In this document: positions 8,275 through 64,000 of the stretch, one piece after another
Layout: every line of letters begins with the position of its first letter
How positions within the stretch are numbered: the first letter of the stretch is position 1
NCBI GenBank assembly: GCA_964412965.1
Contig: CAYPQU010000002.1
Location: 26,004-90,003 of the forward strand
Direction: 5' to 3'
Length of the DNA: 64,000 nucleotides
DNA from: an uncultured Candidatus Saccharibacteria bacterium
GTDB lineage: Bacteria; Patescibacteriota; Minisyncoccia; Phycocordibacterales; UBA9973
Notes under the pieces: model-generated
Told to the model about the DNA's origin: nothing
Seen by the model: the letters and a program-made list of their open reading frames with translations, nothing else
Database searches by the model: none
Made by a program: the position numbers and the translations under genes

Positions 8275-8904
8275 ATGAATGACGATCAAAAAGAAATAAA
8301 CAAAACTGAAGAAGAATTAAATAAAGATCTTAATCAAGAATTAGAAAATACTCCAGATGTTGATTTTAAAGACATAGACATAGTTGCAAGTACAGAAGAT
8401 GGCGAATCTCTTCCCCCTAAAGATATAGTTAAAAAATTAAGAGAGGATATCAAAAAATTACAGAAAGAAAAGGAAGAATATTTAACAGGGTGGCAAAGAG
8501 CCAAGGCTGATTACGTGAATCTGCAAAAAGAGCTAGGCTTAATAAGAGTACTCACAACAAACATAACCAAAGAAAAGGTAACTGAAAAGTTAATTCCAAG
8601 TATAGATAGTTTTGAGTTGGCATTTCAAGATAAAACTAATTGGGAAAAAGTAGACGAGAGCTGGAGAACGGGAATGATTTCCATATACAAACAATTACTA
8701 AGTGGATTGAAAAGTCTTGAGATAGAAAGAATAGAAGAAAAAGATGTTCCTTTCAACCCCTTATTCCATGAATCTATTAAAATAACAAAAACCAAAGACA
8801 AAGAAAAAGATCATCATGTGGATGAAATCTTTCAAATTGGATACAAGATAGGGGATAAAGCTATTCGCCCTGCTAAAGTTTCTATTTTTGAGTTTGAAGA
8901 TTAA
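8275..8904 (+). CDS. grpE: nucleotide exchange factor GrpE
   Basis: Acidic N-terminus, coiled-coil LKKLREDIKKLQKEKEEY.....RAKADYVN, and the C-terminal beta domain F.P..HE.....VDEIFQIGYKIGDKAIRPAKV. ATG at 8275; the ORF track uses the TTG at 8260. Confidence 0.8.
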   Translation: MNDDQKEINKTEEELNKDLNQELENTPDVDFKDIDIVASTEDGESLPPKDIVKKLREDIKKLQKEKEEYLTGWQRAKADYVNLQKELGLIRVLTTNITKEKVTEKLIPSIDSFELAFQDKTNWEKVDESWRTGMISIYKQLLSGLKSLEIERIEEKDVPFNPLFHESIKITKTKDKEKDHHVDEIFQIGYKIGDKAIRPAKVSIFEFED

Positions 8905-9443
8905 AAATTCTTCAATAATTCTAGCCTTGTAGCTTCGTCTATTTTGTTTGTGACAAGTATTATCATTTCGGTAGTTAAACCGAGGTCGTTTTTGATATTA
9001 ATAAAAAGATTTTCGTATGGATAAACAGAAATCCAAACAGAATTTTTTACACACACAAAACCAGCTTTTTTTAATAAATAACGTAAAGCTTCTCTCTCGT
9101 TTTTTCTTTCCTCTGGTAAATCTAAAATTACTATTCGCCAATTACCATCCCAGTTTTTCAACATAATAGCGGTATCGTCATTTAGGGCATTGCTGTTAAT
9201 TTTCTTTCGCCCTTCTTCTGATAATCTAAAAAAAGGCTGCCTGTCTGATTGAAAGCAATCTAGAAGGCCCGAGGTTGATAGATTCTTTAGAGAACGGGAA
9301 ATAGCGTATTCTGTCTTGTTTTTAGCGTCTTGGCTTGTTTTAAGGCTATTTAAAGCCTCTCTTTTTAAGTCTTCTAGCGAGATAACATTTTTTCGGGCTA
9401 ATATTTTAAGTATTATTTTTTGAATAGGTGTATTTTTACTCAT
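8901..9443 (-). CDS. PaaX-family winged-helix transcriptional regulator
   Basis: N-terminal wHTH (IILKILARKNVISLEDL...RSLKNLSTSGLL) and the C-terminal WDGNWRIVILDLPEERKNEREALRYLLKKAGFVCVKNSVWIS, which matches the PaaX C-terminal signature. Divergent from grpE-dnaK. Confidence 0.5.
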   Translation of the reverse strand: MSKNTPIQKIILKILARKNVISLEDLKREALNSLKTSQDAKNKTEYAISRSLKNLSTSGLLDCFQSDRQPFFRLSEEGRKKINSNALNDDTAIMLKNWDGNWRIVILDLPEERKNEREALRYLLKKAGFVCVKNSVWISVYPYENLFINIKNDLGLTTEMIILVTNKIDEATRLELLKNF

Positions 9444-13588: not shown

Positions 13589-14968
13589 TTATATTTTAGT
13601 TATTTTATAGCCATCACCGGTGTCTTTTATTTCATAACCTAAATCTTTTATTTTATTCCTTAGCTCATCACTTTTTATCCAGTCTTTATTATCTCGAGCT
13701 AGCTTTCTTTCTTCTGCCATTTTGATTATTTCTTCAGGTGTTTCTTCTTGTTCTATTTTGTCTAAACCAAAACCAAAAACTCTATCGAAATCTAAAATAG
13801 TTGCTAGTTTGTCTTCATTGCTTACTCGTTTATCTTTTACTAAATCCCATAGAATAGACAAGGCTTTTGGACTTTCTAAATTATTATCCATAGCTTCAAT
13901 AAATTTATTTTTATATTCTTCGTTTATTTTTCCTTTTATATTACCTAAAGAAACAATAAAATCTCTCAGTCTAATGAGTGCGGTTTGGGTGCTGTGAACT
14001 GCTTCTTTGGTAAAATTAACTCGAGTAGTATAGCTAGAACTATATAACCACATTCTAAAGGCAACAGGATCAATTCCCATTTTTATCAAATCTTCTAAAA
14101 TATAAAAATTACCTAAAGATTTACTCATTTTTTGACCATCAACAAGTAAATGTTCGTTGTGAATAAAGTATTTAGCAAAGTCTCCACCTAGAGAACACTT
14201 AGATTGAGCAATTTCGTTTTCGTGATGGGGAAAGATCAGATCTACACCCCCTGTATGAATATCAAAAGTTTCTCCTAAATTTTTTACGCTCATAGCAGAA
14301 CACTCTATGTGCCACCCAGGACGACCCTTTTCTATTTCACTTGATTTACCCAAAATTTCTTCAGGATTCCAAAAAACATCACCGTCTTCTTCGCTCCATT
14401 TTTTCCAGAGAGCAAAATCTTCGGCATTTTCTTTGTCATACTCATCTTTACTTAGACGATTATCTGCATTCTCTTTTAAGTCAGATATTTTAAAGTTGGA
14501 AAGCTTACCGTAGTCATTAAATTTTCTAATATCAAAATAAATAGAACCGTCCTTTGCTTTATACGCAAAACCTTTTACTAAGAGCTCTTCTATGATTAAA
14601 AGCATTTCCTTAATATAGTCAGTGGCTTTAGTGTATTTTGTGGTAGGTAATATGTTTAATAAATCTCTTTCGCTAAAAAATAGGGAAGTGTAATATTCCG
14701 TGAAATCTTTTAGGGATAGCCCTTTTGATTGAGAGGTTTTTATAGTTTTATCATCTACATCAGTAATGTTCATTATGTGTTTAACCTTAAAACCTTTGTA
14801 TTCTAAATATCTTCTTAGAAGATCAGAGAAAACAAAAGCCCTCCAATTGCCAATGTGAATTTTGTTATATACAGTAGGTCCACAAGAATAGATACCAACC
14901 TCATCGTTTTTTAGTGGTACGAATTCTTCTTTATGTCTTTTAAGTGTATTAAATAAAACTAAGCTCAT
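13589..14968 (-). CDS. cysS: cysteinyl-tRNA synthetase
   Basis: HIGN (CGPTVYNKIHIGN) and KMSKS (KMSKSLGN) class-I motifs, and a CysRS-like zinc-site region. Confidence 0.9.
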   Translation of the reverse strand: MSLVLFNTLKRHKEEFVPLKNDEVGIYSCGPTVYNKIHIGNWRAFVFSDLLRRYLEYKGFKVKHIMNITDVDDKTIKTSQSKGLSLKDFTEYYTSLFFSERDLLNILPTTKYTKATDYIKEMLLIIEELLVKGFAYKAKDGSIYFDIRKFNDYGKLSNFKISDLKENADNRLSKDEYDKENAEDFALWKKWSEEDGDVFWNPEEILGKSSEIEKGRPGWHIECSAMSVKNLGETFDIHTGGVDLIFPHHENEIAQSKCSLGGDFAKYFIHNEHLLVDGQKMSKSLGNFYILEDLIKMGIDPVAFRMWLYSSSYTTRVNFTKEAVHSTQTALIRLRDFIVSLGNIKGKINEEYKNKFIEAMDNNLESPKALSILWDLVKDKRVSNEDKLATILDFDRVFGFGLDKIEQEETPEEIIKMAEERKLARDNKDWIKSDELRNKIKDLGYEIKDTGDGYKITKI

Positions 14969-15597
14969 AATATGATTGTTAAAATTAGTAAAATTAATAA
15001 AATCAAATTTAATATAAATAATATCTTGTATTTTTTTTCTAAACTTAAATTTTTTCTTTTAAGAAAACTATTGTTTATGTCTTTTAATAAAATCTTATCG
15101 TGCATTTCGGTCAACATCTTTCTTACAAGATTAGCAAAAAGTAATTCTTGATTATTGATTTTTGATTCAGATTCTATCACCGTGTCTAATTCTAGTTCGC
15201 TAGAAAATTGTTCTATAGAACTGAGAGGTTGATCATGTATTGTTATGACAAAATTTTGGTTTTTAATAAAGACCATTTTTGACGAACTTTCCGTTGGCTC
15301 TCTTTGTGAAAATTTAATAATACAATAGAGCGTATCATTCTCAATGAAGGTGTTGTGATCTTTAGAAGGACTGTGTATCTCTTGTTTTATATCTTCAGGT
15401 ATCTTGTATTCATCTAAAATATAAACAACCTCTTCTTCTTGAGGCGAGGTTAAATCTATCCAAACGATCCCTTTATTTTTATACTTAGATATCACAAAGT
15501 TATTATAACAACAAGAGAGGAGCTTAAGCAAATGAATACTAATTCGTTTGCTTAGTGTCCGAACGCTGTTGTTATATAGTACTCTATATAACAACAA
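14965..15597 (-). CDS. hypothetical protein with a C-terminal TM helix and weak CorA-N-terminal-like similarity; start uncertain
   Basis: KGIVWIDLTSPQEEE...YKIPEDIKQEI resembles the CorA N-terminus, but no GMN motif is present. The first 31 codons, including the TTG start used by the ORF track, lie inside the 83-bp tandem repeat. A GTG at 15495 is an alternative start. Confidence 0.3.
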   Translation of the reverse strand: MLLYRVLYNNSVRTLSKRISIHLLKLLSCCYNNFVISKYKNKGIVWIDLTSPQEEEVVYILDEYKIPEDIKQEIHSPSKDHNTFIENDTLYCIIKFSQREPTESSSKMVFIKNQNFVITIHDQPLSSIEQFSSELELDTVIESESKINNQELLFANLVRKMLTEMHDKILLKDINNSFLKRKNLSLEKKYKILFILNLILLILLILTIIL

Positions 15598-15737
15598 GAG
15601 AGGAGCTTAAGCAAATGAATACTAATTCGTTTGCTTAGTGTCCGAACGCTGTTGTTATATAGTACTCTATATAACAACAAGAGAGGAGCTTAAGCAAATG
15701 AATACTAATTCGTTCGCTTAGTGTCCGAATGCTGTAT
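15505..15737. repeat. 83-bp tandem direct repeat, about 2.8 copies (units start at 15505, 15588, 15671)
   Basis: The unit ataacaacaagagaggagcttaagcaaatgaatactaattcgtttgcttagtgtccgaacgctgttgttatatagtactctat is repeated near-identically. Each unit carries inverted repeats (ataacaaca/tgttgttat) and, on the plus strand, GAGAGGAGC-N8-ATG plus 7 codons plus TAG. Confidence 0.8.
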
Positions 15738-15830
15738 TTGCCTCCAGTATTGCCTAAAAACTTGCTTTTTCTAGCCTTTTTGTGTATTATAAGTTTTACC
15801 TAGGTTTTAGACCCCTGGGGAGTTAAATTT

Positions 15831-16190
15831 ATGGCGCAATCAACTAAAACAAAAAAAACCGAGATAGAAAGCAAAGAATTTGCTGTTATTTTTACTGGAG
15901 GAAAGCAATATAAAGTTTCGGTGGGTGATATTATAAAAATAGAAAAATTAGAAGGAGAATTTAAGACCGGAGATAAAATAATTTTTGATAAAATTCTATT
16001 GGTGGATAATGGTAAAGATACCACAATCGGCACACCTTACATTGATGGAGCAAAAGTAGAATCACTATTCCAAAAATCAGGAAAAGGTAAAACTGTTAAA
16101 GTTGTAAAGTATAAACAAAAGAGTCGTTATTTAAAGAAAAATGGACACAGACAACCTTTTGTAGAAGTTAAAATTTCATCAATCAAATAA
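15831..16190 (+). CDS. rplU: 50S ribosomal protein L21
   Basis: FAVIFTGGKQYKVSVGD....KL and C-terminal KQKSRYLKKNGHRQPFVEVKI. Confidence 0.9.
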   Translation: MAQSTKTKKTEIESKEFAVIFTGGKQYKVSVGDIIKIEKLEGEFKTGDKIIFDKILLVDNGKDTTIGTPYIDGAKVESLFQKSGKGKTVKVVKYKQKSRYLKKNGHRQPFVEVKISSIK

Positions 16191-16193
16191 TAA

Positions 16194-16226
16194 AGCCCCC
16201 CCTAATAAGCTTGGGGGGTTTTATTA
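16194..16226. terminator. bidirectional intrinsic terminator between rplU (+) and recR (-); 7-8 bp G/C stem
   Basis: aaagccccccctaataagcttggggggttttatt, seen directly. Confidence 0.65.
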
Positions 16227-33619: not shown

Positions 33620-33687
33620 GTTTGCTTTCTCTCGGACAAAAAATAAAAAACCTTTCGGCTTTTATTTTTGTGCCCGAGGTGGGAACG
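33620..33687. repeat. direct duplicate (~67 nt, ~95% identical) of the tRNA-Leu 3' end (15 nt) plus its downstream terminator flank
   Basis: gtttgctttctctcggacaaaaa(a)taaaaa(a/g)cctttcggcttttatttttgtgcccgaggtgggaa occurs at 33620-33687 and again at 33780-33845, the second copy being the true tRNA 3' end. Confidence 0.7.
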
Positions 33688-33829
33688 CTTCGCTTATCGC
33701 CGACTACATCGGCAGGTACTTTTCCACCTCGCTTCGCTCGTACGGAAAAGTCTTTCGATTCCCGCACAAAAGCAAAGCAGTTTGCTTTCTCTCGGACAAA
33801 AATAAAAAGCCTTTCGGCTTTTATTTTTG

Positions 33830-33911
33830 TGCCCGAGGTGGGAATCGAACCCACATCCCTTGCGAGACACGATTTTAAGTCGTGCGCGTATACCTATTCC
33901 GCCACTCGGGC
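33830..33911 (-). tRNA. tRNA-Leu (anticodon TAA)
   Basis: The minus strand GCCCGAGTGGCGGAATAGGTATACGCGCACGACTTAAAATCGTGTCTCGCAAGGGATGTGGGTTCGATTCCCACCTCGGGCA folds as a cloverleaf with a long variable arm and anticodon loop CUUAAAA. CCA is not encoded. A small bidirectional hairpin aagcc-gaaa-ggctt plus a T-run follows. Confidence 0.85.
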
Positions 33912-34140
33912 AAACAAAACATATAATATATTTTAAACAGCCGTTTGCCCTCGCGTCGGCCTCCTCCTTTCAGTCGGATAAAACATGAAGCAGTTCATCT
34001 TTTATCCACTCGGGCAAACAAAACATATTAAATGTTTTTAATAACAAAAGGTATTATAGCATAAAGATTTTTAAATAGGAATATTAGTTTTTATTTTTTA
34101 AATTTCTCAAAAGGCTTATTTTTTGATATAATCGACTCAT

Positions 34141-35556: not shown

Positions 35557-36260
35557 ATTTTAGTAGTCCGACTACTAAAATTTAAAATTCTACTTCTTCT
35601 TTTCTCTTTATGGTTTCAAGCCAAAGTGATTTTGCTGTTTTATAATAATCCTCTTTGTTTTTAAAATTACTTAAAACTATTGTTTTGTTACATATTCCCA
35701 CTGAGTCATTAGTATATTCGCACAGACTAGATTTACTAAAATCAGAAATAGTTTTAAGATTTTTATCTAAGTTATTAAAATTAACATATGCACTTAATTG
35801 TATTAAATATCTTTCGTCTTCTATTTGTTTTGATTTAAATTTTCCTTGAAAAAGCACACCAGATCTATCGTATTTTTCATTAAAATATCTAGTATAGCCA
35901 CCTATTCTCTGCATAAATTTTTCTATTCCATTATCTACAAGAGGGGATAAAATAAGATGAAAATGATTCTTGTTAATACAATATGCTATTATGGCTACTA
36001 AAGGTTTTTTAGTAGTCCGACTACTAAATTTTAACTTTTTCTTAAGATGTTGCTGAAAAATACTTTGTATTGGTTCTACTGTATTAAATTCTAATAAACT
36101 CAGAAAAAATCTATTGAGATCTTCTTTATCTATAATGATATCTCTTTTATCAGAACCTCTGTTATAAATATGATAATATTGTCCTATTTCAAATATATGA
36201 TTTCTCATATATATAATCATACCATACTTTTAAATTTTAGTAGTCGGACTACTAAAATTA
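35555..36260 (-). mobile_element. REPtron-like unit: an IS200/RAYT-type Y1 transposase gene flanked by inverted copies of a 23-nt REP-like palindrome
   Basis: ttttagtagtccgactactaaaa at 35558-35580, the inverted version ttttagtagtcggactactaaaa at 36235-36257, and a third same-orientation copy embedded in the ORF at 36008-36028. Confidence 0.6.
35582..36220 (-). CDS. IS200/IS605-family HUH (Y1) transposase-like protein, REP-associated tyrosine transposase (RAYT) type
   Basis: N-terminal YYHIYNRGSDKRDIIIDKEDLNRFFLSLLEF (RAYT YH.xNRG motif); HUH motif NKNHFHLILSP; conserved Tyr-containing C-terminal helix (RYLIQLSAYVNFN). Confidence 0.65.
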   Translation of the reverse strand: MIIYMRNHIFEIGQYYHIYNRGSDKRDIIIDKEDLNRFFLSLLEFNTVEPIQSIFQQHLKKKLKFSSRTTKKPLVAIIAYCINKNHFHLILSPLVDNGIEKFMQRIGGYTRYFNEKYDRSGVLFQGKFKSKQIEDERYLIQLSAYVNFNNLDKNLKTISDFSKSSLCEYTNDSVGICNKTIVLSNFKNKEDYYKTAKSLWLETIKRKEEVEF

Positions 36261-47868: not shown

Positions 47869-48090
47869 CTATTTTAAAGTATTTATGATATAATATATAG
47901 AGTAGTTAGCTTATGTTTTGGTATTAGTTTCATCCTTCGTATGTGTAAACATTGGGGTATGTAAATGAAATCGGGCTATGCGATTACATTTATAAGTTCT
48001 GACCTAGTGTCAGAATCCGACTTAAATCGGATTAGTTTAATTTTGCAATTCGGTATCTTGTGTAAAGTTTTGCAAATACAATTGTCATAT

Positions 48091-48366
48091 ATGGCAAAAA
48101 AGTTATATGTTGGAGGTCTACCTTACAGTACTTCTAACGACGAGCTAAAAGCTCATTTCAGTACAGCAGGAGAAGTTTCTTCTGCAACCATTATCATGGA
48201 TAAGATGACAAATCGCTCAAAAGGTTTTGGATTCGTAGAATTCGAAAACGATGCTGATGCTGAACAAGCCATCTCAATGTTTGACGGTAAAGATTTCGGA
48301 GGAAGAAAGCTTACAGTAAATGAAGCTCGACCCATGGAAGAAAGACCTAGAAACTTTCAAAGATAA
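48091..48366 (+). CDS. RRM-type RNA-binding protein (glycine-poor Rbp-like, ~91 aa)
   Basis: RNP-2 LYVGGL and RNP-1 KGFGFVEF. The ORF track starts at 47965, but that 42-aa extension is unlike bacterial RRM proteins; the region is better explained as a structured ~190-nt leader downstream of a TGATATAAT box at ~47884-47892. Confidence 0.65.
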   Translation: MAKKLYVGGLPYSTSNDELKAHFSTAGEVSSATIIMDKMTNRSKGFGFVEFENDADAEQAISMFDGKDFGGRKLTVNEARPMEERPRNFQR

Positions 48367-55719: not shown

Positions 55720-56694
55720 ATGCAAGAAGAAAAAATAATTTATATTACAAGAAAAATACCAGAACCTGGATTAAAACTATTGGATGAAAAAGGAATAAAG
55801 TATGACATCGGCAATTTCAAAAAACCTCCAACCACTAAAGATCTTAAAAAAGAATTGCTAAAGAAAAATTATACCGGAGTCATTTCTTTCTTGACCGACA
55901 AAATAGATGCCGAGATAATGGAAGCTTTCCCTGGGATAAAAATTTATTCCAATTTTGCTGTCGGCTATGACAACCTAAACATTGAAGATGCAAAAACACG
56001 AGGTATTTTCCTTACAAACACTCCTGGAACATCGGCCATGGCAGTTGCTGAACACACTGTCGCTTTAATGCTAGCTTTAACGACTAGATTAGTTGAAGGA
56101 GACGAATACATGAGGTGTGGTAAATATAAAGGATGGGATCCAAATATTTTTATTGGAACAGACCTTAGAGGTAAAATAATTGGACTTATTGGTGCTGGAC
56201 AGATAGGAACCGAGGTTGCAAAGATGCTTCGATATGGATTTGGAGCTAATATTATTTATAGTGATATAAAAAGAAATACTGACTTGGAAAACATTGATGG
56301 AATTGTAAGACGAGAAACCGAAGAAGTTTTAAGAGAGTCAGACATCGTATCTCTACATGTTCCGCTATTGCCAACAACAAAACATTTAATAAATTCTGAG
56401 ACTCTTAAAACAATGAAGCCAACTGCTTTTTTAATTAATACATCCAGAGGTCCCGTAGTCGATGAAAAAGCTCTAATAGAAGCCCTGGAAAAAGATATTA
56501 TTAGAGGTGCAGGATTGGACGTTTTTGAATTTGAGCCAAAACTGTCTAGGGGGTTAACCAAGCTCCCAGACGTTATCATCACTCCACACATTGCTTCTTC
56601 TAGACAATCTGCGCGAGAAATGATGTCGATAATTGCCGTTCAAAACATCATCTCTTTCTTAGAGACAGGTAAACCAATAAACAATATTTACTAA
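55720..56694 (+). CDS. D-isomer-specific 2-hydroxyacid dehydrogenase (glycerate/hydroxypyruvate/phosphoglycerate DH family)
   Basis: NAD-binding GLIGAGQIGTEVAKM and the catalytic R...E..H context (TPHIASS). Confidence 0.8.
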   Translation: MQEEKIIYITRKIPEPGLKLLDEKGIKYDIGNFKKPPTTKDLKKELLKKNYTGVISFLTDKIDAEIMEAFPGIKIYSNFAVGYDNLNIEDAKTRGIFLTNTPGTSAMAVAEHTVALMLALTTRLVEGDEYMRCGKYKGWDPNIFIGTDLRGKIIGLIGAGQIGTEVAKMLRYGFGANIIYSDIKRNTDLENIDGIVRRETEEVLRESDIVSLHVPLLPTTKHLINSETLKTMKPTAFLINTSRGPVVDEKALIEALEKDIIRGAGLDVFEFEPKLSRGLTKLPDVIITPHIASSRQSAREMMSIIAVQNIISFLETGKPINNIY

Positions 56695-56702
56695 TTATTT
56701 TA

Positions 56703-56726
56703 AAAGGACCACTTGTGGTCCTTTTA
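56703..56726 (+). terminator. hairpin aaaggacc-acttgt-ggtccttt
   Basis: Seen directly; the T-run is partly within the stem. Confidence 0.45.
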
Positions 56727-56756
56727 AAATGATTAAATTAGTTATAAAATAAACAG

Positions 56757-57926
56757 ATGGAACCACTAGCTCACAAAATCAGACCTACCAAGTTATCAGA
56801 ATTTGTCGGGCAAGAACACTTAATAGGCAAAGACAAACCATTAAACATAGCTATATCTAAAAAGCACGTTTTTTCTTTTATCTTATGGGGTCCACCAGGA
56901 GTAGGAAAAACTACGCTAGCGAGAATTTATGCAAAATCTATTAATGCGGACTTTTACGAGTTATCAGCAGTTTCCGCGTCTAAAGATGATATCAAAAAAA
57001 TCCTAGATGAATCACCAAGAGGAATTGGGACATTGCTCGGGCCTAAAATTATTTTTCTAGATGAAATTCATCGATTTAATAAAGCTCAACAGGATTTTCT
57101 TTTACCTTTTGTAGAAAATGGCAAACTTGTTTTGATTGGAGCTACAACAGAAAATCCGAGTTTCGAAGTCATTCCGGCTTTATTATCGCGATGCAAAGTT
57201 TTTGTTTTAGAAAGCCTCGGCTCTTCCGATATGAAAAAAATAATCAAGAGGACTGGTTATGAGATGGATAAAGAATCTATTGATTGGATTATTAAGTATT
57301 CTGATGGAGATGCCAGACAAGCAATCTCTGTAATTGAAAATACTTTTTCTCTATATCAAAAAATAACAATTGAAAATTTAAAAAATACAATTCAGTCAAA
57401 ATTTATTCGTTATGACAAAAAAGGGGAGGAGCACCACAATTTAATTAGTGCTTTTATCAAGAGTATGAGAGCTAGCCAACCAGACCCCACTTTATACTAT
57501 TTGTCAAGGATGATAGTGGCTGGAGAAGATCCAAAATTTATTGCGCGAAGAATGGTAGTTTTTGCTTCTGAAGATATTGGATTAGCACAACCAACAGCTT
57601 TAGTGGTGGCTAATGAGGTCTTTAGGGCCGTCGAAACTATCGGTTATCCAGAATGCGCAATAAACCTAGCTCACGGAGCAGTTTATTTGGCCCTGGCGAA
57701 GAAAGACAGAAGCACCTATGAAGCCTTCAGAACGGCCGAGAATGATGCCATGGTCCACGGAAGCCTTCCGGTACCACTTAATCTAAGGAATGCGCCTACG
57801 AAGCTAATGAAAGACTTAGGATATGGAAAAGGGTATGAAATATACACTGGTAAGGATTTAATGCCTACAAAACTAAAAAATAAAAAATATCTTATCAATA
57901 GGAGAGACAAAGAAAAACTAAAATAA
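56757..57926 (+). CDS. rarA: replication-associated recombination protein A (RarA/MgsA AAA+ ATPase)
   Basis: [13 protein letters not shown], Walker [12 protein letters not shown], Walker [13 protein letters not shown], and a MgsA C-terminal domain. Confidence 0.85.
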
Positions 57927-58047
57927 AACCCGACGGGCTTTATTTGTTAATATAAAGACTTTTATCCTATTTTAGTGTCGCAAAAGATATATTGTGCGAC
58001 GCTATATATGCTTTCAAACAAAGACACCGAGCACTTCCCTAAGATGT

Positions 58048-63245: not shown

Positions 63246-64000
63246 TTAAAACCAATTATCATCACTTGTTATTTTTCTCCTCAAATTATAACTATTTGCA
63301 TGCTCGAAATGTCCAAAATAAGATCTTATAACAGGCAGAAACTTTATAGAGTATAAGCCATCTTCTTTGTTTTTATTTTTATACATTTTGTCTTTAAACC
63401 TCCGAACCACCTTTCTTCTTACTAGAGTATGAGTCGGTTTAATATAATAACCAAGAAAGTCTATTCCATGATTAACCTGCCTTAGAAATATCTTATCGGG
63501 GGCCAATTTTAAATTTAACTTCTGATTAAGAAATAGATCAATTTTTTTTATCGTTTCTTCTAATCTTTCTTTGTCTTCATCTAGGATAATAAAATCATCA
63601 ACATATCTAAGATAACGATAAAATTTTAATTCATTTTTTATATAATGATCCAATTTATCTAAATAAATATTTGCAAAAAATTGGCTAGTTAAATTCCCTA
63701 TTGGTAAACCTTTATTTCTATCTCCATAAAACAAAGATTTGTGCTTAGGGACAACGCCTCTTGTATTATTCGCCCCTTTGAAAACATAATTAGATGTTGG
63801 ATCATGAAAAATAATCATTTTTGTTAGCCACAGTATTTCGTCTTTCCACGATTTATCTTTGTCACTTCTCACAATAATCATTTTCATTTCTTCGTATAGA
63901 ATATTTTTGTCTATATTTCTGAAAAATCCCTTGATATCCATCTTTAAATAATACAATCTTCTACCATCCTTTCCTCCTCTTGATATATGATATCTTAATT
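63246..64000 (-). CDS. reverse transcriptase, DGR-type motif set; C-terminal ~250 aa, with the 5' end beyond the window
   Basis: The frame is open to the window edge. RT motif 1 LKMDIKGFFRNID, motif 4 GLPIGNLTSQFFANIYL (the IGxxxSQ variant typical of diversity-generating-retroelement RTs rather than QGxxxSP), motif 5 YLRYVDDFIIL, motifs 6/7 (LNLKLAPDK, GIDFLGYYI), and a short thumb. Confidence 0.75.
   Translation of the reverse strand, partial: LRYHISRGGKDGRRLYYLKMDIKGFFRNIDKNILYEEMKMIIVRSDKDKSWKDEILWLTKMIIFHDPTSNYVFKGANNTRGVVPKHKSLFYGDRNKGLPIGNLTSQFFANIYLDKLDHYIKNELKFYRYLRYVDDFIILDEDKERLEETIKKIDLFLNQKLNLKLAPDKIFLRQVNHGIDFLGYYIKPTHTLVRRKVVRRFKDKMYKNKNKEDGLYSIKFLPVIRSYFGHFEHANSYNLRRKITSDDNWF

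Follow-up and report, generated by a model that had tools for sequence, protein, structure and literature searches.

The explanation we favour for the 83-bp repeats between rplU and a corA-like gene, with somewhat less than even confidence, is that of a selected, acquired and structured intergenic repeat, copy-variable by recombination and belonging to a rare family in the Patescibacteria. The repeats lie in a 64,000-nt stretch of DNA, referred to here as the window. Most likely the repeats derive from a low-copy element, either mobile or acquired horizontally, since the family occupies three unrelated loci in three lineages and two of these are shown insertions.

Layout of the array and of its repeat unit

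Tandem Repeats Finder placed the array at 15504-15735 with a period of 83, 2.8 copies, 98% matches and a score of 450, which makes it the top-scoring repeat of the window. Moreover, a 52-nt core occurs three times in the array and 0 times in 100 shuffles, so that the tandem repeat of 2.8 copies described by an earlier, sequence-only reading is borne out. Each 83-bp unit comprises a ~73-nt imperfect palindrome and a 10-nt palindromic spacer (Table 1). The first two units are identical to each other, and the third carries 2 substitutions and departs from the repeat after 66 nt. Covariance model R1 scores 105.9, 105.4 and 94.1 bits on the three units. The units are contiguous and identical, without unique spacers, and the array is not a CRISPR, as that reading had stated. 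Since the perfect repeat of 166 bp exceeds typical short-read and k-mer lengths, the unit count of the window may be inexact; the contig of one relative (L003) ends within the element.

The flanking inverted repeat (TATAACAACA/TGTTGTTATA) and the 13-bp inner inverted repeat (TAAGCAAATGAAT/ATTCGTTTGCTTA) that the sequence-only reading described are both present, as is, in all three units, its Shine-Dalgarno (SD) sequence followed by a mini-ORF, GAGAGGAGC-N8-ATG AAT ACT AAT TCG TTT GCT TAG. That reading overlooked a perfect 13-bp hairpin at the unit junction, TGTTGTTATATAG-TACT-CTATATAACAACA. The array folds far better than expected by chance, with z-scores of -8.0 (+ strand) and -7.1 (- strand). 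Folds are more stable on the + than on the - strand (-29.4 vs -23.5 and -22.6 vs -20.5 kcal/mol), and wobble pairs favour the window + strand by 5:1.

Within the unit, the core of box 1, GAGGAGC, is invariant across every family member, and so is TGTCCGA..GC in box 2. Box 1 is complementary to the 16S 3' tail, which we take to end in ...CCUCCUUUCU, a generic tail that may not be the host's own. The 5' arm of hpA (AAGCAAATGA) is conserved in sequence and its 3' arm drifts. The 10-nt spacer and the arms of hpB are identical in three sub-clades, and in L022, where the spacer reads TGGTAATCCA, a compensatory change preserves the hpB hairpin. A canonical k-turn in the loop formed by the two boxes was rejected by inspection, the strand order being a misfit. 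The mini-ORF is found in the closest clades only, as MNTNSFA, MSTNSFS and MNTNLFG, with a 7-codon length in three sub-clades; it reads through in L022a and L030 and lacks an ATG in L022b. Its substitutions show no excess of synonymous changes, and no terminator-like site was found in or after the units of the array.

Table 1. Coordinates of the array, its parts and the neighbouring features in the window
Feature	Position	Strand	Remarks
corA-like gene	14965..15495	-	176 aa; CorA N-terminal domain and one hydrophobic tail; start GTG 15495
TATAAT, -10 of corA-like gene	15502..15507	-	6 nt upstream of GTG 15495
Tandem array	15504..15735	.	Two full 83-bp units (15504-15586, 15587-15669) and a 66-nt terminal unit (15670-15735)
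Box 1, AGAGAGGAGC	15514..15523, 15597-15606, 15680-15689	+	Unpaired, purine-rich, includes AGGAG
Hairpin hpA (P2), TTAAGCAAATGAAT-ACTA-ATTCGTTTGCTTAG	15524..15555, 15607-15638, 15690-15721	+	
TTGCTT, presumed replacement -35 of corA-like promoter	15526..15531	-	Within hpA of the first unit
Mini-ORF, MNTNSFA-stop	15532..15555, 15615-15638, 15698-15721	+	
Box 2, TGTCCGAACGC	15556..15566, 15639-15649, 15722-15732	+	As TGTCCGAATGC at 15722-15732
Junction hairpin hpB	15567..15596, 15650-15679	.	Formed by the P1' strand, spacer TAGTACTCTA and the following unit's P1 strand
Decayed outer P1' and half-spacer of last unit, GTATTTGCCTCCAGTATTGCC...	15736..15761	.	L031 retains GTTGTTATATAGTTCTCTAAG here
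rplU promoter, TTGCTT-N17-TATTAT	15762..15790	+	Followed by SD GGGGAG and rplU (15831-16190)
RAYT-like Y1 (IS200-like) transposase gene	35582..36220	-	~20 kb from array
Palindrome TTTAGTAGTCCGACTACTAAA	35559-35579, 36008-36028, 36236-36256		3 copies, only beside the RAYT-like gene

Distribution, copy number and conservation of the family

The suggestion of an expanding minisatellite was right: strains differ, with 1, 2 or 3 units at the rplU/corA-like locus in close relatives and 0 in more distant ones. There are 3 units in the window and 1 in L001/L002, 2 in L007 and 1 in L004-6, L008 and L009, and 2 in L032 and 1 in L031. The element is present in three related sub-clades and absent from the site in four more distant clades (L010-15, L016-21, L033/34 and L035), whose empty sites retain an intact promoter, TTGAAA-N16/17-TATAAT-N6/7-ATG. 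The window is the only multi-copy allele found in its own sub-clade, 2-unit alleles occur in the two other sub-clades, and one spacer sequence is common to all three. Presence/absence polymorphism at orthologous sites is seen both at this locus and at an rpmB/tRNA-Pro locus.

Outside the rplU/corA-like locus, a diverged two-unit array of the family occupies an unrelated locus in a Hainich groundwater Patescibacteria genome, diverged 2-unit arrays being seen in L022, L121 and others, and a single unit adjoins tRNA-Pro in a Jorgensenbacteria genome. R1 gives 58.7 and 52.1 bits for L022, L026, L029 and L121, and 34.8 bits for L025 and L030. L030 carries its copy as an insertion when compared with L118/L119, whose spacer between rpmB and tRNA-Pro measures 13 nt. 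The insert is flanked by an 8-bp direct repeat, CGGGCTGT, of which ~0.1 would be expected by chance and which may thus be coincidental. The preferred folding strand in L030 is antisense to both neighbouring genes. Terminal inverted repeats, TATAACAAC/GTTGTTATA, are present in the window, L007, L031/32 and L022, and that of L030 has 4 bp only (CCCG/CGGG). TA flanks the units, and no clear target-site duplication is visible at the window locus.

The two boxes, AGWGAGGAGC and TGTCCGARYGC, are unpaired and invariant in all members, and the stem sequences that flank them vary. The distance from box to box is 32, 22, 26 or 27 nt depending on the member and is always taken up by a hairpin, that of L022b being degenerate. 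P1 shows compensatory changes (C-G to U-A in L022a; CCCG/CGGG in L030), as does hpB, a covariation that is thin, given ~6 independent units in the family; hpA is wholly replaced in L030 and shows mismatches among members (L004, L031). Between the window and L032, 74 of 83 positions of the unit are identical, against 28 of 41 4-fold sites in rplU (Fisher p = 0.005) and 7 of 24 in the corA-like gene (p = 1e-6), and the unit thus evolves more slowly. In this comparison neither the spacer nor the 5' P1 strand differs at any position, the 3' P1 strand differs at one, and the changes fall mostly in the loop and 3' arm of hpA.

No further units were found in the 64-kb window by blastn-short, by a box-plus-hairpin descriptor or by unfiltered R1, so the array is a single locus there, and other Patescibacteria DNA (about 140 kb) gave no R1 match. 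A strict-pattern search returned one match per species-representative genome and one on a Jorgensenbacteria contig of 635 kb. Most relatives lack the element, as do nearly all species representatives of the Patescibacteria. The occurrence of one locus per genome counts against a mobile family and fits a single-copy functional gene or site.

With Rfam 15, the array matched only LPR17, at 11.7 bits vs a gathering score of 98, which is chance level (E <= 10); L022 and L030 matched nothing at E <= 1, the whole window yielded 2 tRNAs only, and the element family is uncatalogued. IMG/VR viral contigs, phages and plasmids gave only chance matches, in high-GC coding sequence without hairpins, and the metagenome matches L023, L024, L027 and L028 were set aside on similar grounds (high GC, hairpin absent). 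No autonomous partner with ends matching those of the element was found, and nothing relevant was found in the literature on Patescibacteria MITEs or structured RNAs. Two other candidates were rejected as members: a 48-nt repeat beside tRNA-Pro in L118, which R1 does not match, and a presumed degenerate copy near a tRNA at 33.6-33.8 kb (TGTCCGAGAG and the AAAGCAAA hairpin), for which R1 gives E = 2.5 or nothing, as by chance. A replication origin or terminus was discarded, as the cumulative GC skew has no turning point at 15.6 kb, and the location of the folding strand on the G-rich strand, seen at 2 of 3 loci, was uninformative.

Flanking promoters and competing explanations

The product of the corA-like gene matches Pfam CorA (E = 8.6e-14) over its N-terminal half only. 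Its homologues have 176-181 aa and start with MISKY; the called product P0004 alone has five extra upstream residues, corresponding to the GTG at 15495. The TTG-started ORF of 210 aa is therefore over-extended, since the homologues begin at MISKY, and the sequence-only reading was right to regard its minus-strand N-terminal extension as artefactual. Both the 210-aa call and the reading of an rplU leader peptide are wrong. In all relatives, with or without the element, TATAAT or TATACT-N6-7-ATG is kept. The product of rplU matches Pfam Ribosomal_L21p (E = 5.5e-32), and the rplU promoter, situated downstream of the array, is kept in every clade, element-less ones included.

With promoters assigned from consensus and conservation alone, the array is located between the -35 and -10 of a leaderless corA-like promoter and outside that of rplU. 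The TTGCTT of the first unit, a hexamer shared with the rplU promoter, probably constitutes the replacement -35 of the corA-like promoter; it stands 18 nt from TATAAT, an arrangement also present in L001, L004, L031 and L022. Two features count against such promoter donation: TTGCTT matches TTGACA at 3 of 6 positions, and GTG is a poor start for a leaderless mRNA.

According to the explanation that we favour, the element would have inserted between the -35 and -10 of the corA-like promoter, so that its own TTGCTT, 18 bp from the retained TATAAT, would now act as the -35, and the rplU promoter would stay outside the array. Units may be gained and lost through unequal recombination or slippage between identical 83-bp units. 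The single-unit alleles would be products of contraction, because the spacer is missing from them and cannot be regenerated. Selection would act on a folded single strand, either RNA or single-stranded DNA, with the wobble pairs leaning to the window + strand. In that fold, hpA and P1/hpB would place box 1 beside box 2 irrespective of the length of hpA, and the side-by-side boxes may form the binding site of a trans-acting factor, hairpin-specific HUH/Y1 enzymes being one candidate class.

A RAYT-like gene is present in the window (Table 1). Its product matches Pfam Y1_Tnp (E = 1.3e-8, 35.4 bits, cut-off 23) and NCBIfam REP_Tyr_transpos (E = 1.7e-5, 24.7 bits, under the curated cut-off of 80), and its translation shows HUH (HFH) and YxxxN motifs; an exact-protein look-up returned no record. 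The enzyme is possibly a hairpin processor, and any action on the array would be hypothetical. The palindrome beside the gene and the 83-bp unit are different sequences, with GTCCGA alone in common. The sharing of this hexamer between box 2 and the loop of the palindrome was dismissed, since GTCCGA is not rare in the window (16 vs about 11 expected).

A possible, though doubtful, alternative is a stand-alone or processed small structured RNA from the window + strand, made up of P1, the box 1/box 2 internal loop and P2. Box 1 complements the 16S 3' tail over 9 nt, so the target of such an RNA might be the 30S subunit or a protein, with a higher dose supplied by the array. The invariant internal-loop boxes between stems of replaced sequence, the purifying selection on a unit that is apparently single-copy per genome, the better folding and wobble bias of the + strand, and the presence, at each of the three loci, of a -10-like hexamer 7-9 nt before box 1 are consistent with it. 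However, a convincing -35 and a terminator are both missing, and the -10-like hexamers arise as by-products of a palindromic TATAAT or from a tRNA D-arm. The element has no constant gene neighbourhood, and an RNA from the L030 copy would run antisense to rpmB and the tRNA-Pro leader. Moreover, the P2 helix has degenerated in L022b and contains mismatches in L004 and L031, P1 cannot form in the single-unit alleles of the window clade, and most relatives and nearly all species representatives lack the element.

We consider it unlikely that the unit, instead of being a decaying mobile relic, represents a new kind of functional module in Patescibacteria, one that is single-copy, under selection and dependent on its structure. 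An RNA version would place the 9-nt complement of the 16S 3' tail beside the second invariant box for binding of the ribosome or a protein, with unit number setting the dose. A single-strand DNA version would rebuild -35 and -10 duplexes across a bubble by folding, in a Frpo/sso-like manner, and might be read in replication or DNA uptake.

An array bound by protein as double-stranded DNA (operator-, centromere- or iteron-like), or a cruciform tuning divergent promoters by supercoiling, is improbable. In the window and in L022 the array does occupy the exact interval between divergent promoters, its palindromes are perfect and AT-rich, and it resembles plasmid centromeres, in which tandem units each carry an inverted repeat. 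Nevertheless, the palindromes vary between members and the non-palindromic boxes are the conserved part, with a spacing of 22-32 bp that a duplex-binding protein would not tolerate; the L030 copy lies between co-oriented genes, and the GC skew indicates no origin or terminus here.

We see a slim chance that the array is a tandem-expanded minus-strand 5' UTR or cis-regulatory RNA of the corA-like gene, acting as an ion-responsive switch or as an anti-SD mimic (GCUCCUCUCU). A gene does start 2-25 nt from the element in that orientation at all three loci, and the neighbour here is CorA-like. However, TATAAT is conserved 6-7 nt before the corA-like start in all clades, with no SD, and the mRNA thus most likely begins downstream of the array. 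Four clades also have the corA-like gene but no element, the downstream genes bear no relation to one another (corA-like, membrane protein, tRNA-Pro), wobble pairs and fold energies favour the opposite strand, and there is no Rfam riboswitch match. A Type III toxin-antitoxin RNA array (ToxI-like) was also rejected, given the four clades with a corA-like gene and no array and the lack of a terminator.

Very little credence is given to a functionless product of neutral local duplication or assembly error, of which a single copy in relatives, along with a lack of strand-specific transcripts, had been proposed as the mark. In its favour are the single-copy relatives, the identity of copies 1 and 2, a repeat length beyond that of short reads and the break of the L003 contig within the repeat. 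On the other hand, independent assemblies from other samples carry 2 units with the same spacer (L007, L032), in two other sub-clades; together with the diverged 2-unit array at an unrelated locus (L022, L121 and others), these alleles argue against a one-off duplication artefact, as does the purifying selection on unit and spacer. Finally, the tandem leader-peptide or attenuator array for rplU put forward by the sequence-only reading has scarcely any chance, in spite of an SD, N8, ATG and a 7-codon ORF overlapping the hairpin in each unit and of a codon number retained in three sub-clades, since the rplU promoter is downstream of the array and conserved without it, no terminator is present, the ORF is missing or read through in L022a, L022b and L030 and shows no synonymous bias, and rplU of most relatives has no element.

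Comparison with known systems

The genomes of Patescibacteria (CPR) are compact and small, with few known regulatory RNAs or repeats, and few families specific to them have been described. The present element is not in Rfam, is conserved well beyond neutral expectation, keeps two exact boxes across distant lineages and has a copy number that differs among strains of a single population. Should it be a mobile palindromic element, it would exemplify promoter capture and minisatellite dynamics in ultra-small genomes and could be used as a marker for typing strains; a functional RNA or single-strand DNA signal would represent a new class.

REP/BIME/REPIN sequences are palindromes in arrays, on whose folded single strands an enzyme acts, reading unpaired bases beside the hairpin. 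The likeness to REP/BIME with RAYT consists in the palindromic arrays and in the RAYT-like gene with its own palindromes in the window. Unlike REP, the 83-bp unit has no GTAG-type core, is not multi-copy and does not belong to the RAYT palindrome family. Single-strand DNA promoters and origins, such as Frpo of F and ssoA of rolling-circle plasmids, depend on orientation and on the single-stranded state. Like these, the folded strand has a -35-like TTGCTT/AAGCAA (hpA) and a -10-like TATAAC/GTTATA (P1) with a bubble between them. The present element, in contrast, is chromosomal, with no conjugative or rolling-circle context seen nearby, and the likeness may be architectural only.

In the pneumococcal BOX (boxA-boxB(n)-boxC), as in the array, the number of internal tandem modules is strain-variable. 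BOX has distinct terminal modules and >100 copies per genome, whereas in the present array the whole unit repeats, without A or C modules, the ends are decayed half-spacers and the locus is single. Like the Correia elements (CREE/NEMIS) of Neisseria and MITEs, the element is short, non-coding and intergenic, has terminal inverted repeats and is present or absent between relatives; TA dinucleotide flanks are also common to CREE and the present element. Outward promoters can arise from CREE ends, and the hairpins of CREE are substrates of RNase III (PMC2649163, PMC10969869). CREE occur in about 120-250 dispersed copies per genome, in contrast to the one locus per genome seen for the present element. 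Unlike CREE, it shows no clear target-site duplication and forms tandem arrays with a fixed palindromic spacer, and its two internal asymmetric boxes, rather than the terminal repeats, are the most conserved part.

Architecture of the array and its neighbouring genes

The window DNA is low in GC (33%), and its closest relatives are Patescibacteria of the Candidatus Moranbacteria type. Tandem Repeats Finder returned the 83-bp array as by far the strongest repeat of the 64 kb, the repeat core occurs three times in the window and in none of 100 shuffles, and folding lies far outside chance on both strands (z = -8.0 and -7.1 against shuffles), which bears out the hairpin array described in the sequence-only reading. 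Copies 1 and 2 show no difference; copy 3 carries two substitutions and departs from the repeat after 66 nt. Each unit runs, in order, through an outer stem strand (P1, TATAACAACA), a conserved unpaired segment (box 1, AGAGAGGAGC), an inner hairpin (hpA; 14 pairs including a closing U·G wobble, 4-nt loop), a second such segment (box 2, TGTCCGAACGC), the other outer strand (P1', TGTTGTTATA) and a spacer (TAGTACTCTA). P1', the spacer and the P1 of the following unit form a perfect 13-bp hairpin across the junction (hpB), which had been overlooked.

Left of the array, on the minus strand, lies the gene of a 176-aa protein with a Pfam CorA match confined to its N-terminal half. The family is conserved in the relatives, with a CorA N-terminal domain and one hydrophobic tail; the GMN pore part is absent, and the gene shares 4 bp with cysS. 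Because the homologues are 176-181 aa long and begin MISKY, the true start is the GTG at 15495, and the TTG-started 210-aa minus-strand ORF that enters the repeat is an artefact, as had been suspected. The only homologue with five additional upstream residues, the called product P0004, owes them to gene-caller over-extension. The predicted corA-like promoter is of the leaderless type (TATAAT-N6/7-start, without SD), and the GTG start codon of the window and the 93%-identity clade is odd for a leaderless mRNA. To the right come rplU and a terminator; rplU is solitary, with its own promoter and no rpmA downstream. The rplU-recR interval differs among relatives, with an additional PaaX_M (Cas2-like domain) gene in the 93% clade and an unannotated 231-aa gene in L033.

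Coordinates of the array and of other features in the window and in related DNA (L-numbers)
Feature	Source	Position (strand)	Description
83-bp array	window	15504-15735	period 83, 2.8 copies, 98% matches, score 450
corA-like gene	window	14965-15495 (-)	
rplU; rplU-recR interval	window	15831-16218	
rplU-recR interval	L004	1861-2361	
rplU-recR interval	L033	8747-9442	
Second PaaX_M gene	window	8901-9443	
RAYT-like gene	window	35582-36220 (-)	region 35557-36260; 212 aa, IS200-like Y1, HUH and Tyr motifs
tRNA gene	window	33830-33911 (-)	partial duplicates within 33620-34060
RRM-domain protein	window	47965-48366	RNA recognition motif, 133 aa
GC-skew turn	window	about 56000-58000	positive to negative; cumulative skew maximum
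Reverse-transcriptase ORF	window	63246-63956 (-)	close to window end; RVT_1, E = 1.9e-14
Leftward Hainich gene	L022; L121	2150-2200; 3560-3610	
Region 5' of tRNA-Pro	L030; L120	3125-3210; 2720-2895	
48-nt tandem repeat	L118/L119	2797-2915	2.5 copies

Relatives at the locus and the folded strand

The gene order dnaJ, pilin, cysS, corA-like and then, in the opposite direction, rplU, recR and dnaB is retained in all fetched relatives, whose rplU/corA-like spacers are either filled or empty. Filled sites belong to three sub-clades: the window's own (three units in the window, one in L001 and L002), the 93%-identity clade (two in L007, one in L004-L006, L008 and L009) and the 71%-identity clade (two in L032, one in L031). 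This variation at one locus confirms the minisatellite option of the sequence-only reading. Empty sites occur in four clades, at 69%, 66%, 58% and 48% identity, and their spacer of 73-93 bp contains two overlapping divergent promoters, predicted from consensus and conservation: TTGCTT-N17-TATTAT for rplU, and TTGAAA-N16/17-TATAAT or TATACT for the corA-like gene, with the ATG 6-7 nt on and no SD, which would make the mRNA leaderless. Filled sites keep the TATAAT and the corA-like start codon, and in them the element substitutes for the -35 to -10 interval, its own TTGCTT, within hpA, lying 18 nt from the TATAAT. The predicted rplU promoter is unaltered and lies downstream of the array, which, together with the poor conservation of the mini-ORF, argues against the leader-peptide or attenuator role that had been proposed for rplU.

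The 10-nt spacer is the same in multi-unit alleles of all three sub-clades, and in the window and 93% clades alleles with one unit have neither the spacer nor the outer P1' strand. Unequal recombination could yield single-unit alleles from arrays, and the reverse route would not be possible. Since the spacer is common to three sub-clades and single-unit alleles could not regenerate arrays, the multi-unit state is probably old and the single-unit state derived.

When the window is compared with the 71% clade, 74 of 83 unit positions are identical, against 28 of 41 4-fold sites in rplU and 7 of 24 in the corA-like gene (Fisher p = 0.005 for rplU alone, 1e-6 for both genes). Most of the differences lie in hpA, in its loop and 3' arm; across the three sub-clades there are none in the 5' P1 strand or the spacer, and one each in the 3' P1 strand, box 1 and box 2. 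The last unit's outer half-spacer is decayed, unlike the constrained inner spacer. The distance between the boxes is 32, 22, 26 or 27 nt depending on the member, and a hairpin always lies between them, degenerate in L022b, one of two diverged units from Hainich groundwater. Because this length varies yet is always hairpin, what is conserved would be the side-by-side placement of the two boxes once a single strand (RNA or single-stranded DNA) has folded, not a duplex spacing. The window plus strand folds more stably (-29.4 vs -23.5 and -22.6 vs -20.5 kcal/mol), and one-sided changes retained as G-U or G-T favour it 5 to 1 (p = 0.11), weakly supporting it as the folded strand. In the Jorgensenbacteria unit L030, the preferred strand is antisense to both adjacent genes.

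The SD-N8-ATG with a seven-codon ORF, noticed earlier, is present in all units of the array. It reads MNTNSFA, MSTNSFS or MNTNLFG according to sub-clade, with replacement and silent changes equal in number; it is read through for 43 codons in L022a, the other Hainich unit, lacks an ATG in L022b, and has an SD spacing of 4 nt and a long read-through in L030. The mini-ORF is not a conserved coding feature, and the invariant AAGCAAATGA arm is accounted for equally well by the minus-strand TTGCTT.

Members elsewhere and other features of the window

One scan each of metagenome and species-representative genome collections, with the pattern AGAGAGGAGC-N26-40-TGTCCGAAYGC, gave two additional contexts after filtering; four high-GC matches in which the hairpin was absent were dropped as chance. 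Two diverged tandem units lie between divergent genes in a Patescibacteria genome from Hainich groundwater (L022, L026, L029, L121). P1 of one unit is ATAACAAT/ATTGTTAT, a compensatory change, one of the two hpA hairpins is shorter by 10 nt while the other is degenerate, and the spacer TGGTAATCCA again forms hpB, via a compensatory G-C. The left unit again presents TTGCTT-N18-TATAAT, directed at the leftward gene. This membrane-anchored gene has no ATG, GTG or TTG before its signal-anchor segment; its frame opens at GTC ATA ATT, 6 nt past the TATAAT completed by the element's end.

The second context, Ca. Jorgensenbacteria GW2011_GWA1_48_11 (L030, L025), has a single unit between rpmB and tRNA-Pro, with both boxes exact, a 4-bp P1 and, between the boxes, a perfect 11-bp hairpin of unrelated sequence. 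Because the same interval is only 13 nt in a related genome (L118, L119), this unit, too, is an insertion; it is flanked by an 8-bp direct repeat that matches the tRNA's first 8 nt (CGGGCTGT, tRNA 5' end). With the covariance model (R1), built from window-clade units, the two Hainich units reach 58.7 and 52.1 bits, and the unit from Jorgensenbacteria reaches 34.8 bits. The model found no further members in 205 kb of Patescibacteria DNA and, with filters off, no further copies in the window; Rfam gave no match for the element, and viral, phage and plasmid collections gave no family member.

The region 5' of tRNA-Pro in Jorgensenbacteria has the look of an insertion hotspot, and in L120 it is a 175-nt spacer with pseudo-tRNA fragments. 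In Ca. Jorgensenbacteria GWA1_49_17 (L118/L119), the 48-nt repeat starts within the tRNA-Pro 3' end; every unit combines a strong SD-like box (GAAGGAGG) with a small hairpin and TGTGCCGACC, the array is followed by a strong hairpin, and R1 does not match the repeat.

A scan of the window ORFs found the RAYT-like Y1/HUH transposase gene, which suggests that hairpin-processing enzymes exist in this genome; a specific link with the 83-bp unit was looked for in the sequence and none was found. Inverted copies of a 21-nt palindrome (TTTAGTAGTCCGACTACTAAA) flank this gene, a third copy is in frame within it (coding ...KFSSRTTKKP...), and the related contig L125 terminates exactly at the palindrome. 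Around the tRNA gene at 33830 lie a 47-64-nt duplicate of its 3' end plus terminator, 159 bp off, and a 36-nt duplicate of its 5' end, 104 bp off, which look like att-like integration scars. Candidate sources of the reverse-transcriptase ORF are group II introns, retrons and diversity-generating retroelements, the skew turn may mark a gene-orientation change or a replication terminus, and the RRM protein might serve as a binding partner of this genome's structured RNAs.

The element and known repeats

A low-copy, acquired structured repeat element is the best-supported reading, because there is insertion at two of three loci, the occurrence is sporadic across distant lineages, terminal inverted repeats are present, the element's end can complete a predicted outward promoter, and unit number is strain-variable. 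Such an acquired element is like Correia elements (PMC2649163) in the capacity of its end to complete an outward promoter, and like boxB modules (PMC3049150) in the differing unit number between strains. In contrast to Correia elements and boxB-bearing repeats, it was seen at one locus per genome, it is conserved most in two asymmetric internal boxes, and the junction hairpin of its array is itself constrained; these same points keep alive the alternative of a single-copy element that functions as an RNA or as a single-strand DNA signal.
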